Source: Eledone cirrhosa
Taxonomy: Eukaryota
Direction of reading: 5' to 3'
Length of the DNA: 48,954 nucleotides
NCBI GenBank assembly: GCA_964016885.1
Contig: CAXHJY010000002.1
Location: forward strand, 1-48,954
Under the pieces are notes generated by a model. It had not been told where the DNA came from, did no database searches, and saw only the letters and a program-made list of their open reading frames with translations. The position numbers were made by a program, and so were the translations under genes. Positions 14,011 through 29,838 of this stretch are shown here, piece after piece. How positions within the stretch are numbered: the stretch's first letter is position 1; the number at the start of each line of letters is the position of its first letter.

Positions 14011-14079
14011 TTTTATGGCAAATTCCTGTGGTAATGCCTGTATTGGTACAGCATATAGATGTTCTGCCAGCTGATGAAC
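14011..14079 (-). CDS. GRL-A exon 2 (VHQLAEHLYAVPIQALPQEFAIK)
   Basis: ttttctgctacgttag| 69 nt |gtaagt, phase 0. Same length as GRL-C exon 2 and homologous to it (IHGVVEYLYD...LK). Confidence 0.88.
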
Positions 14080-16088
14080 CTAACGTAGCAGAAAATGAAT
14101 TCCATATAATATATTGAAACAGTGAGAGAGTGTATGGACAGGTTAACGCTCAAACGTCACGTAAAACGAAAAATGGATAATTTAGACAGCTATATTTCAA
14201 GTAGACTAGATCGTAATTTCATTGAAAAACCGAATAATGGGCATTACAACACACACACACACACACACACACACACACACACACACACACACACACACAC
14301 ACACACACACACACACCACACACACCACACACACCACACACACCACACACACACACACACACACACACACACACACACACACACACACACACACACACAC
14401 ACACACACACACATACACACACACACACACACACACACACACACATTTTATATATATAATGTGTGTGTAATTTCCTTGGAATGAAACAGTCCTAGTCCTG
14501 TAGAAACTATTTCTATATCAAATATATATATATATATATATAGGAAAATTTCTGGAATAGCCGTCGAAACGGCTTGAGCTCTGCCGTCGGGGTCAAACAT
14601 TTTCCTATTACCCACTGTACTACCCTAAGTATTGAGTACTCTGGTGCTTTATGGTCCATCTGGTTCCTTACCACACCACCTTCGTTTTATATATATATAT
14701 ATATATATATATATATATATATATATATATATATATATATATATATATATATATATATATATATATATATGTGTGTGTGTGTGTGTGTCAGCCGGGCACA
14801 CGAGAAGAAGGGCGTGTTTTTTCCCTGCGGCATATCATAAAATCGTATTTTTTCAACTGAAGATACCGTTCCCATAACAACAAGTGCATGAGTTACATCA
14901 TGGATTACACAAGGGCGTCGTTGAAATAATTATTATGAATAAACGATTCATGTAGCATCAGCATTTTTCTTAATGTTATTATTATACTGAAATACTAAAA
15001 TACCAGTAATGCACTGGTTATTGCTGGCCTTGTGCCTAACGTAGAAACAGTTATTCTTATACTGAATCTCCATCGTAACTACGAACGTAGAGAGCTTTCT
15101 CTGGCTTACTCCTGTTTTTACCAAAACAACTTCTACTGAACACACACACACACACACACACACACACACACACACACACACACACACACACACACACACA
15201 CACACATATGTATAAACACACACACATATAAAAGGTAAACAGAAATAACAAAGGAAACGACACAGTACACAGAAGAAATATATTAGTTTAACGCTTGAAA
15301 TAGCAAAAGAGTCTTAACGTTTCGGACACTAGTTTTTCGCCAGAAGATAGATTTATAAGTAGAAGATAAATAGAAAGAAAAGAGTGAGAAGAGGATGGAG
15401 CGGGGAAAAATGAGGACAAAAAGGAAAAAAAACACACACACACACACACACACACTGCTCCGTATTAACAATAGTAATATATATATATATATATTTCAGT
15501 GTGGCCTATCCTTGGTGGTAGGGTCCGTACCATAGATAGAACTCAATATAATCCAATGGTGAGTAATTCCGAAGAAGACGGTTTGATCGAACCTATATAT
15601 GAGGTCTGATAGTATACAGTTATATAACTGCTATAGATTTGACAATATGTCAATCTGATCAACCCTTCGAAACGATCGTCAAACAATGATATGAATAGGT
15701 AAAATAACTTGACTTTGTTGTTTTTATTTTCATTGTTAATTCAATACACGTATATATACATATAGTAATAATAATAACTTTGAAGACTAAAATCCAAAGA
15801 GGGCTCGATAAGGATAAATATATATCAAATATATAAGAACCGTAGAGCAAATATTTATTAAAATAAAAGATTAAAGTTTAAGCAAAGAATCGCTGTTAAT
15901 TTTCACCGAAATATGCGATAGATATATATATGTACATATACAGCATCGACGTAACATAGATTGCCTCATTTTTATTTTTTATTTTTTTTAAAACACTAGT
16001 CTTTATTGTGTTGTATCAAATGAAAGAATGGTATTTAACTAATGTATTGGTACGCGATGGTGCCCACCCACAGCCCCGATTATGTATA

Positions 16089-16270
16089 GGGCGGTGGATT
16101 GGCAGTATCGGTAGAGCGTCAGACACCATGATTTATAGCATAGAGTTACGGCCCTTTAAGTTCTGAGTTCAAATCCTGCCGAGGTTAACTTTGTTTTTCA
16201 TCCTTACGGGGTCGATAAAATAAAGCACCAATAATGTACTGGGTAATTGCTGGCCTTGTGCCAAAAGTAG
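16089..16270 (+). mobile_element. SINE family 1 at the left boundary of the tandem duplication
   Basis: A-box-like tggcagtatcgg and B-box gagttcaaatcc. The body matches the SINE at 27444. Confidence 0.9.
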
Positions 16271-16359
16271 TAATTATACATAGTGGCTGAGAAAATATTT
16301 GATGCCACTATGTATTATAGTATTGTAACTAGCTGTACAATTCTACGTATAGTTAATAA

Positions 16360-26633: not shown

Positions 26634-26762
26634 CTAATATTCGGTTCGATTGCAAGCAAACAGCCTCATTACGTTATGTTTTTTAAATAACTACTGTCAT
26701 AGCTTTGTTCCAGCGGTGACACTGCTTGCAAACGAATCGAATATTATTATTATTACTAGTAG

Positions 26763-26946
26763 GCGGTGGATTGGCAGTATCGGTAGAGGGTCGGACGCCA
26801 TGCTTTCCAGCATAGTTACGTCCCTTTACGATCTGAGTTCAAATTCCCGCCGAGGTTGACTTTGCCTTTCATCCTTACGGGGTAGATAAAATAAAGTACC
26901 AGTAATGCACTGGGTAATTGCTGGCCGTGTGCCTAAAGTAGAAACA
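26763..26946 (+). mobile_element. Young SINE family 1 insertion with a 17-bp TSD, absent from duplicate unit B
   Basis: Flanked by attattattactagtag at 26746-26762 and 26947-26963. The empty site is at ~36939-36955. Confidence 0.92.
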
Positions 26947-28794
26947 ATTATTATTACTAGTAGCAGAAAAACCACCCTTCGTGGGTTATCTGCTAGCATG
27001 TGTAGTGTGTATATTGATATTATATGGAAATATACATACATGTAGATATGATACGTCAAATATAATCGTAATTGACAATATACACAGAAATTGAAGAGAG
27101 ACTGTGTTACACTGTCTTCTGTAATCAGTAAAGTAATCCATGATACATTTTAAAAAGACGATATTATATATAAACTGCATTACGGTGAAATGTTGTGAAC
27201 ACAAAAAGGAGAAAATTAGCGACAGAAATATAAACGTTATGATATAACGATGGAAATATATGAATGTTTATATAAGTGATATGATATAGCATCCGTTATA
27301 TCATACGGGAAGTATTGACATTTGAAAATTTTAAAAGAAGTGAATCTTAAAATAAGCAATCATTATATATAAGAATATTTATGTTTAATCAACAGCTACG
27401 AAATTTAGTACATAAATTATGCAATATTCATTCATTATTTATTCGGTGGATTGGCAGTATCGGTAGAGCGTCAGACACCATGATTTATAGCATAGAGTTA
27501 CGGCCCTTTAAGTTCTGAGTTCAAATCCTGCCGAGGTTAACTTTGTTTTTCATCCTTACGGGGTCGATAAAATAAAGCACCAATAATGTACTGGGTAATT
27601 GCTGGCCTTGTGCCAAAAGTAGTAATTATACATAGTGGCTGAGAAAATATTTGATGCCACTATGTATTATAGTATTGTAACTAGCTGTAAAATTCTACGT
27701 CTATACGTTAATAAATATTTCTACTTTTGGCACAAGGCCAGCAATTATCCCAGTGTATTACTCGTACTTTATTTTATCGACCCCGTAAGGATGAAAAGCA
27801 AAGTTAACGTATAGTTAATAATGGAGGCACTCCATCGTTTATGACGAGTGTTCCAGTTGATACGATCAATGGAACAGCTTGCTCGTGGAATTAGCGTGCA
27901 AGTGGTTGAGCATTCCACAAACACGCGTACCCTTTCCGTAGTTATCAGGAAGATTCAGTGTGACACAGTGTGTGACTAGGCTAGTCCTTCGTACTGTGGG
28001 TGAATCTCATTTTTGTCAGCTGAGTAGACAGGAGCAACGTGAAATAAAGTGTCTTGCTCAAGGACACAACGCGCCATCGGGAATCGAACACACAGCCTTA
28101 CGATTGTGTGCTGAACGCTCTAATCCCAAAGCCACGCACCTTCACATAGTTCATAATAATTGTTTCTAGTTTTGGCACAAGGCCAGCAATTACTCCAGTG
28201 TATTACTGGTGCTTTATTTTATCGACCCCGTAAGGATGAAAGGCAAAGTTAATCTCGGCGGGATTTGAACTCAGACCGTAAAAGATCATAACTTTGTGCT
28301 GCAAAGCATGGCATCCGACCCTCTACCGATACTGCCAATGTTTCCTTGTTTGTGTGGCTCGTGATGTTGTTGAGGATGTGAGTTGGATTGTGTTTGCTTT
28401 TATTTTTTACTTTGTAAAGTTGTTTTTGTTTGTGGTTAAATTGAAATTTTTTATTGGTGTGGTGTCCTACTTGTGACCTTTAGCTTCCTTCTGCCAACTG
28501 TTTACGGTTATATATTATATTTAGATGCAATATTAAAAAAAAAAATTGATAATAATACATTTAATCTACCGTATTTCCCGGAGCCGAAGTCGCTTCGTCC
28601 TCGAGGACGCACTCTAATTCTGACAACCGAAAATTTGAAAAAAATAATAAACAACCTTCGGCCTCCAGAACGCATGGTAGATTTTTGAGACTTATTTTAG
28701 GAAAAAAGTAGCGTCTTTGACACCGGGAAATATGGTATATCAGGTTCGAAGAATTATTTAATACCAATGAAAAAAAAAAAAGTTGAATACTTAC

Positions 28795-29838
28795 TTTCCC
28801 ATTAATCTGGAGTCCAGTATGTATATAGATGACACAAGATAGAGCTGTCATTATTCCCAAGATTAATTGTAACATGAAAGTGTTTAAATTTACGAACTCT
28901 TTCGAAATTTCAAATGATATCAAACAGCAGATTAGAACAAGCGTTATCGTTGTAAATAACATAGGAGTGGAAGTGGCTGAGTTTATAAATTTCAATAATC
29001 TACAAAGTCTATCATATTGAATAATTATCTGATACAATATTCGATTCCACTGAGCACATGGATAAAATATTCCTGTACTTTTGATGTGCATTTCCCTCAA
29101 AATGTTTTCCAGCTTCTCAGACATATATTTAAATTCATCTATTATTATTCCTACTGTTACAAAGAACAATGCACTGTTCGGAAATATGATTAAATAAACC
29201 ACTATGTCTGTAATAAAATACATTACTAAAGCTAATGCAAATAAACTGTTGTCACGTGATATTGGGAAAGCAAAGACATCAATACAGTATGAACTATCTA
29301 TGACCAATGGTAATAATAGAGTGATTACAGTATTTATTACTATATAAAAAGCGAATTCCATTTTGATGGAAAACTTAGCCCATTTCTGACAACGAACTAT
29401 ATGTTTTCCATTTTGGTTTATTAGTAGATAATTTTCAAATTCACGAATTAATTCGTTCGTACAATTTCTCTTCCAAAGGGTAGTTATTGCTAATGCAGAT
29501 GGAATAAACGTTTGGTATAACAGAAATAATTTCATGAGTAGACACAAAGTAATGCTAGTTGAATAGTTTGTTAAAATGAACCATAAAACACGAGCCAGCT
29601 TAAATAGAAGAACTAAATACAATAAAGGAAGGAAACTGTATACAATGCGGTTTTTTATACCAGACGATTTCCAAATTTCTAGATTAATTTTAGGAGGAAA
29701 ATAATTAATAATGGAAAACCTTTGAATGTACTTTAATACTGAATTAAGAACTGTGTCTTTTATTTGTTTCAATTTATCTTCATCGATATTTATATTGAAA
29801 GATTCGCTTCCTTCAATTGTTGATACAGATGATTCCAT
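28795..29838 (-). CDS. GRL-B: duplicated long first exon (348 aa, TM1-TM6) with no exons 2-4 of its own
   Basis: Open frame, ATG at 29838, intact donor GK|gtaagt. 16 aa differences from GRL-A exon 1. Confidence 0.8.

Follow-up and report, generated by a model that had tools for sequence, protein, structure and literature searches.

A tandem first-exon copy above a putatively shared tail in a predicted gustatory receptor-like locus of Eledone cirrhosa, and the same layout at other octopod loci

Can a long first exon that was copied without the remainder of its gene still be used to make a receptor? This question is raised by a locus of the octopod Eledone cirrhosa, which is located on the minus strand of contig CAXHJY010000002.1 (assembly GCA_964016885.1). 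The window analysed here is this entire unplaced contig, C29, which comprises 49 kb (48,954 nucleotides) of the 3.0-Gb assembly. Along the minus strand, it contains a gene that we refer to as gene C, followed by two near-identical long first exons, 1B and 1A, and by the small exons 2 and 3, and every intron is in phase 0. An earlier reading, made from the letters alone (hereafter the sequence-only reading), had described 1A and 1B as 348-codon frames with GTAAGT donors; their coordinates, frames and donors are correct, and both exons are open, start with ATG and possess an identical donor. We propose that exon 1B is a recent first-exon copy, which is probably used as an alternative first exon on the shared exons 2 and 3 and on an exon 4 that would lie off the contig. 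The single parts of this proposal are held more firmly: the duplication is very likely real, the locus is very likely complete, and splicing of 1B is highly probable. That octopods possess an architecture of variable first exons on a shared tail is highly likely, and the best interpretation of exon 1B is that it adds a further isoform to a system that is already well developed in these animals.

Profile scans of the whole minus strand, performed without a splice requirement, revealed exactly two exon-2-like sites (scores of 42-45 vs 12 for the next site) and exactly two exon-3-like sites (75-82 vs 18), which correspond to the pair of the A/B gene and the pair of gene C. On this strand, no exon-2-like or exon-3-like site was found between 1A and 1B, and the earlier statement that this interval lacks such equivalents holds: a single downstream pair is available to A and B. 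Exon 3 of the A/B gene is present in a single copy in the assembly, and searches of the assembly identified no further close copies of exon 1A, exon 3 or exon 1 of gene C. Exon 4 of gene C lies upstream of 1B and is therefore unusable by it. A search for an exon 4 of the A/B gene covered 646 AG sites in positions 1-12174 and found none: the best site scored 7.7, compared with leave-one-out scores of 18-36 for ten true exon 4s. The shared tail is thus incomplete in the assembly. Loci of the Drosophila Gr39a/Gr28b type are characterized by at least two long first exons that each possess a start and a donor and have no intervening tail, as is the case for 1A and 1B, and by a complete shared set of three small exons, which is found at a second locus, C13; of such a set, the A/B gene shows exons 2 and 3. 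Such loci also have a promoter per first exon and transcripts that link every first exon with the shared ones; for the latter, RefSeq isoform models of the paralogous locus provide indirect support.

The window genes are predicted to encode gustatory receptor (GR)-like channels of the 7tm_7 family, which is characterized by tetrameric, ligand-gated cation channels. Exon 1A alone matches 7tm_6 with an E-value of 0.055 and no family above the Pfam cut-off, and no Pfam match was obtained for 1B, for exon 1 of gene C or for exon 3 peptides in isolation. The curated 7tm_7 cut-off of 26.6 bits is exceeded by seven first exons of C13 (28-35.5 bits) and by the Octopus proteins P0013, P0018 and P0020 (27-35 bits); full-length P0072 and P0084 remain below it. 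Exon 1A aligns to P0013, a full-length O. sinensis relative of gene C, with an E-value of 6e-13, and a profile of 48 relatives matches DmGr64a (E-value 1.5e-8) over S4-S7b. The predicted model of exon 1A (predicted local distance difference test, pLDDT, 61) consists of six long helices and an N-terminal helix, and its ten best Foldseek matches are all insect odorant receptors (ORs) or GRs (template modelling (TM) scores 0.36-0.58, E-values all above 0.001). The model of P0013 (pLDDT 84) gave 13 matches with E-values up to 0.001, all of them ORs or GRs, the best of which has an E-value of 2.8e-5 and a TM score of 0.64. Identity of the octopod proteins to the insect structures (DmGr64a 8ze0, DmGr43a, MhOR5 7lic, AgamOR28 8v3c and Orco 6c70) amounts to 11-16%. 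The earlier assignment to GR-like seven-transmembrane ion channels is supported.

GR-like proteins (GRLs) are known in Mollusca and are defined by the transmembrane helix 7 (TM7) motif and by introns at the 3' end (PMC7746228, PMC5850775). The motif reads (T/S)Yhhhhh(Q/K/E)(F/L/M) (PMC7746228), and three short exons are separated by the 3' introns (PMC7746228, PMC6175461). Three of the four motif positions are matched by gene C and by the C13 tail, the last being T; in place of F, L or M, T follows the Q in 7/9 octopod exon-4 types (gene C, C13 array tail, G1, G4, C3 tail, P0013 and P0045). Exon 4 of G2 (C13:13005310) has a degenerate pore motif, in which polar residues and a proline replace the last hydrophobic residues and the Q. 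Three phase-0 introns are present in gene C and in four C13 tails, and the A/B gene shows the first two donors and acceptors and the third donor. By homology, the exon junctions of P0013 fall at residues 334, 357 and 387, within S6, S7a and S7b; the helix positions of exon 2 were also taken from the model of this O. sinensis paralogue. In solved GRs, S7a belongs to the anchor domain, the pore is lined by S7b and the ligand is bound within S1-S6 (PMC12635824). Exon 1 is therefore predicted to contain the pocket and the small exons to contain the pore, which supports the division into a variable body and a constant pore at the exon 1 donor that the sequence-only reading had suggested.

The layout resembles that of Drosophila Gr39a (as well as Gr28b and Gr23a), in which long six-transmembrane first exons with their own start and donor are spliced to three small TM7 exons (PMC2204066), and the analogy with Gr39a and Gr28b drawn earlier is supported by this arrangement of first exons and tail. 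As in Gr39a, first exons have been gained, lost and pseudogenised (PMC2204066). Gr39a possesses 4-5 first exons under overall purifying selection (PMC2204066), whereas there are two in the window and 16 at C13, the latter with an omega (dN/dS, the ratio of replacement to silent substitution rates) of 2.2; moreover, Gr39a splicing has been shown in flies (PMC2204066), whereas octopod splicing is so far modelled. Likewise, the Gr60a-m locus of Blattella germanica has tandem long first exons that are spliced into three shared short last exons (PMC6175461). B. germanica has 26 spliced Gr genes, and the largest locus, with 13 isoforms (PMC6175461), is comparable to C13. Unlike the octopod loci, this is an insect system in which RNA-seq backs some of the splices (PMC6175461).

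Does the same layout occur elsewhere in the genome, with an intact tail? A stretch of 600 kb was read on C13, which contains 19 first exons and four tails; three of the genes are of conventional layout, and the remaining 16 first exons form a single array. The array spans 262 kb (13.020-13.282 Mb) without undetermined bases (N) and ends in a single intact set of exons 2, 3 and 4 (13,282,184, 13,302,335 and 13,305,276). Twelve of the 16 first exons are open and have an identical TCG|GTAAGT donor; the other four are two broken copies of the same subfamily, a divergent one with a stop and a divergent one adjoining the tail. The latter has lost its 3' third and its donor at a SINE (short interspersed nuclear element) remnant, so the tail can serve upstream exons only. 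In leave-one-out scans of the array, the best exon 3 site scored 19 vs 55-64 for five true exon 3s, none of about 11,745 AG sites scored as high as any true exon 2 or exon 3, and no AG site reached the true exon 4 score in 3/4 test exons. The C13 copies have 140-325 bp in common upstream of the ATG. The 12 intact exons share 84-97% protein identity, with a mean dN of 0.062 and a mean dS of 0.035, and omega is 2.22 under the Goldman-Yang model (log likelihood -2987.4 vs -2997.1 at an omega of 1) and 1.76 under the Muse-Gaut model. These exons contain zero stops, compared with about 6.7 expected from at least 187 changes. Judged by these substitutions, diversifying selection acts on the array. 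In an alignment of 11 of the 12 intact exons, 25 sites show at least three residues, and 16/25 of them fall within the inferred outer halves of S2, S3, S4 and S6 (23% of sites), windows that were picked after the pattern had been seen. C29 could belong in the C13 gap at 13,334,371; the matches there are to repeats only, and no exon 4 was found on either side. The C13 exon 3 also has a dispersed copy on C3 (L066, 362900325-362903411; 96% identical), which contains a stop and a deletion of 3 bases and lacks the donor; this copy at 362.9 Mb is a 2.1-kb genomic duplicate with intron flanks, and its interpretation as a retrocopy, in which splice junctions would be preserved, was rejected.

On C3, where a further 600 kb were read, 12 first exons (nine intact) form three arrays, each of which ends in one exon 3 and one exon 4; one further weak fragment was left out of the count, exon 2 was not identified in these arrays, and two of the arrays contain a gap and one is gap-free. 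The upstream types V, X and Y differ from the tail-adjacent type W by a dS of 0.66-0.87 with an omega of 0.40-0.56, and their frames are open; across the deep comparisons of C3 exon types, omega is 0.40-0.66. Two of the arrays, a and b (69.45-69.73 Mb), are near-identical inverted mirror images (93-97% protein identity), each with a gap, which may reflect a recent inversion-duplication or an assembly effect. Taken together, the window, C13 and C3 contain 34 first exons vs nine tails, a lower bound, as the genome searches scored the best candidates only and 1.2 Mb were read around two clusters. The excess of first exons that the sequence-only reading had proposed to look for in cephalopods is thus present within this genome, and the Octopus RefSeq isoforms show it likewise.

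A HMMER search of representative sequences yielded 60 homologous proteins; word-based homologue searches with exon 1A and with alignment A2 gave no matches. The nearest named relatives of the window genes are Octopus proteins. RefSeq models of O. sinensis place two first exons (isoforms X1/X2 vs X3/X4) on one tail in LOC118764607 and three (X1, X2 and X3) in LOC118764608, and those of O. bimaculoides place two (X1/X2 vs X3) in LOC106880719. As in the window, different first exons of the same family are thus combined with an identical tail: the final 48 residues are identical within each of the three genes, whereas over the 68 residues at the end of the first exon, the O. sinensis isoforms agree at 30-37/68. 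The isoforms are joined at the donor position seen in the window. The tails match the C13 tail at 56/69 (LOC118764607), 55/69 (LOC118764608) and 57/69 (LOC106880719), and with this layout and orthologous tails, the design is older than the split from those species. The Octopus isoform first exons and the C13 array form one starred clade, so these models belong to the C13 clade and not to the A/B clade; in addition, they are named 'uncharacterized' and several are partial. Exon 1 of gene C clusters with LOC118764606 of O. sinensis and two further Octopus-type sequences, and compared with the O. sinensis gene C relative, an O. bimaculoides protein has a different first exon (32/68) and nearly the same tail (42/45). 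The A-like first exons P0010, P0012 and P0014, which are open frames or models, have 32-35% identity. The Octopus isoforms X2/X4 (P0071, P0074 and P0075) use a second acceptor inside exon 2 in both species, which removes 14 residues of the predicted cytosolic end of S6. The sequence-only reading had regarded the locus as possibly nascent, which applies to the A/B exon copy only: the design is common to two Octopus species, and on C3 it connects first exons that have diverged at a dS of 0.65-0.87.

How did exon 1B arise? Self-BLAST aligned 16092-21191 with 27444-32538 (98.2%), 22388-26762 with 32537-36956 (96.9%) and 26947-27625 with 36940-37618 (95.3%), and a global alignment of units A and B contains 120 substitutions per 9,919 aligned bases (1.2%). 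These alignments and the profile scans confirm that the duplication copied exon 1 and about 9 kb of upstream DNA and left out exons 2 and 3. Unit A contains a private SINE insertion (about 26746-26946) and a 1.2-kb piece of a LINE (long interspersed nuclear element) that is missing from unit B. This LINE, which is decayed and has RVT_1 matches, is present in both units on the plus strand (21000-24200 and 32500-34300). The SINE at the junction combines the body of one neighbouring SINE with the left flank of another (Table 1); the switch is located within a 25-bp block common to both, gap-free and without N. This structure is what unequal crossing-over would be expected to produce, and if two alleles recombined, the divergence of 1.2% overstates the age of the duplication. 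Unequal crossing-over between two SINEs probably created exon 1B, and each first exon is most likely transcribed from a promoter of its own, given that the duplication included 9 kb of upstream DNA. The first-exon donor would be spliced to the nearest downstream acceptor, at exon 2, in the manner depicted for Gr39a (PMC2204066), and the 1B transcript would splice out a 14,715-base intron that contains 1A. The first exon would supply S0-S6 and the ligand pocket and the shared small exons S7a and the pore helix S7b, yielding A and B subunits with a putative chemosensory role that differ by 16 residues and have one common pore. More generally, new first exons may arise by SINE-mediated unequal crossing-over and subsequently diverge or decay.

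Exons 1A and 1B differ by 22 nucleotides, which affect 16 replacement codons and five silent codons. Changes are denser in the exon than in its flanks (22/1044 vs 98/8875; Fisher P 0.01) and cluster on S3 at residues 165, 169, 170 and 173. The exon excess and this cluster are at most suggestive. Furthermore, 9/16 replacements are found in the inferred outer halves of S2, S3, S4 and S6 (23% of sites), a count that is weakened by windows set after the pattern had been seen. At window position 29589, run X4 (organism B) has the 1B letter at codon 84, which hints, at this one site, that the 1A residue is derived.

Table 1. Features of the window, with positions on contig C29
Feature	Position	Strand	Description
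Exon 1A	17435..18478	-	348 codons, 1,044 nt, ATG, stop-free, phase-0 GTAAGT donor; predicted helices S0-S6
Exon 1B	28795..29838	-	duplicate of 1A, 1,044 nt, ATG, open, identical donor; 16 residues changed; no exons 2-4 of its own
Exon 2	14011..14079	-	23 codons, phase 0-0, AG/GT ends, single copy; cytosolic end of S6 and start of S7a by homology
Exon 3	12175..12264	-	30 codons, phase 0-0, AG/GT ends; S7a, hairpin and start of S7b by homology
Gene C exon 1	43407..44420	-	338 codons; third paralogue, complete, absent from the sequence-only reading
Gene C exon 2	41046..41114	-	from profile scan of the minus strand
Gene C exon 3	40155..40244	-	from profile scan of the minus strand
Gene C exon 4	37805..37867	-	TM7 motif (TY, five hydrophobic residues, Q, then T) and stop
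Unit A	16092..27443	.	exon 1A flanked by 1.3 kb of intron 1 and 9 kb of upstream sequence; private SINE, extra 1.2 kb LINE
Unit B	27444..37436	.	exon 1B flanked by 1.3 kb of intron 1 and upstream sequence
Junction SINE	27444..27625	+	body like the SINE at 16092, left flank like that of the SINE at 37437
Left SINE	16092..16273	+	putative left parent of the unequal crossover
Right SINE	37437..37626	+	putative right parent of the unequal crossover

Is the tandem copy real, or did the assembly place two haplotypes of one locus one behind the other? The latter is unlikely, although the contig is small and unplaced and both the 1.2% divergence and the presence or absence of a SINE could be allelic. 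The junction lacks N and switches inside the 25-bp block, which argues for a true duplication, and searches of the assembly yielded no second haplotig for these exons. Short-read contigs were assembled from three runs of one sample, S1, which is possibly the source of the assembly. Contig depth in S1 is not a copy number, and the single-copy control is one 83-bp piece outside the duplication (depth 9.4); with this limit, depths are 16-19 for pieces shared by A and B, 4.5-5.5 for minor exon contigs, and 7.6 and 10.5 for a B-type intron piece. A model with four copies, three of them A-like, predicts depths of 4.3 for one copy and 8.7 for two, which the minor contigs and the single-copy piece match, and predicts that A wins 98% of the bubbles. 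Two alleles at 1:1 should yield A/B mosaics, whereas the long exon contigs of run X2 have the A letter at 13/14 bubbles, which fits 3:1 and not 1:1 (P 0.0009), and the long exon contig differs from A by one letter in X2 and by three in X3, two of which as listed (17792 and 17832) are B letters. The mean depth of the main contigs in X2, 13.3, in contrast, is closer to the 1:1 model (13.9) than to 3:1 (15.6). Runs X5 and X6 and the restriction site-associated DNA (RAD) runs X7 and X8 have near-zero cover on the exon. Overall, the S1 contigs favour four copies per diploid over two alleles, not decisively.

Given a real duplication, exon 1B could be an orphan that is not used and has not yet decayed, which we regard as fairly unlikely. 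At 1.2% divergence, an open frame is expected even without selection, and broken first exons are present in the C13 and C3 arrays; yet the duplication preserved the entire 9 kb upstream as well as the donor, the substitution density of the exon is about twice that of the flanks, and the sister loci hold many orphan-looking exons under selection. Quite unlikely is a pseudogene or pore-less A/B gene that has lost exon 4. While none is found in the 12,174 bases below exon 3, a stretch that contains a large retroelement, exons 1A, 1B, 2 and 3 are intact with canonical sites, and the dispersed C13 exon 3 copy on C3 has already acquired its defects at 96% identity. Moreover, the end of the contig is formed by an AT array, and the C13 tail has an intron 2 of 20 kb. 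Finally, orphan first exons might be read through at the donor and act as six-helix proteins without S7, as the frames continue past the donor for 77 codons in 1A/1B and 20-32 codons in the C13 array. This is very improbable, since the resulting tails vary from copy to copy and contain no TM7 motif, all 12/12 intact C13 copies have an invariant donor, and the Octopus models splice at the donor position.

Several observations weigh against use of exon 1B on the shared tail and against the wider interpretation. The A/B dN/dS of 0.85 (dN 0.021, dS 0.024) is indistinguishable from neutral, and 1B has an A113P exchange within predicted helix S2. No exon 4 was found in the 12 kb below exon 3 or beside the C13 gap, and other intron 3s measure 0.7-5.4 kb. 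No contig bridges the 27444 junction, both flanks of which are high-copy repeats; the contigs of run X1 are A-type at all 14 listed A/B sites, without a B letter, and S1 may lack the duplication and have two A-like alleles. Exon 1A alone stays below the 7tm_7 cut-off, no annotated protein with an A-type tail was found, and gene conversion can distort the omega of the C13 array, in which 4/16 exons are broken. The Octopus isoforms are models; such RefSeq models generally rest on spliced reads.

Some further features of the window concern gene C and the surrounding repeats. An acceptor-like pyrimidine tract ending in CAG 13 bases before the ATG of gene C (44421-44460, minus strand) suggests an upstream non-coding exon. 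A 20-bp minisatellite with 81.5 copies (38517-40147) starts eight bases below the exon 3 donor of gene C, and a 44-bp array (40284-40870) is located just above the exon 3 acceptor. At 2674-6393 on the minus strand, an open frame of 1,239 codons contains YVDD and a GIY-YIG-like C-terminus, has repeated flanking ends and gave no Pfam match; it resembles a near-intact Penelope-like element, and copies of about 95% identity are present on C13. No Rfam matches were found in the window.

What would a used exon 1B mean? Octopus chemosensation is discussed in a 2024 review via chemotactile receptors derived from nicotinic acetylcholine receptors (PMC11526382). Our literature search, which left most subscription papers and supplements outside its reach, found no description of a spliced-first-exon GRL layout in molluscs and no title on cephalopod GRLs, and the accessible passages of PMC5203786 and PMC4244043 contain none on spliced GR first exons outside insects. 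We give an even chance to the reading that octopods independently evolved insect-style chemoreceptors with a variable sensor and a constant pore, in which dozens of fast-evolving first exons share few pore tails and which were overlooked beside the chemotactile receptors; the window would then hold an isoform just born by SINE recombination, the pocket of which is likely already diverging. Since orphan first exons resemble gene fragments, such GR-like exons are missed by annotation. If expressed in suckers or the olfactory organ, they would constitute a second channel repertoire, which is directly testable, and the A/B pair, with its difference of 16 residues, would offer a minimal system in which ligand specificity could be mapped. 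The recurrence of this layout in a mollusc suggests that the ancestral GR structure, one long exon followed by phase-0 tail exons, predisposes the family to such diversification.

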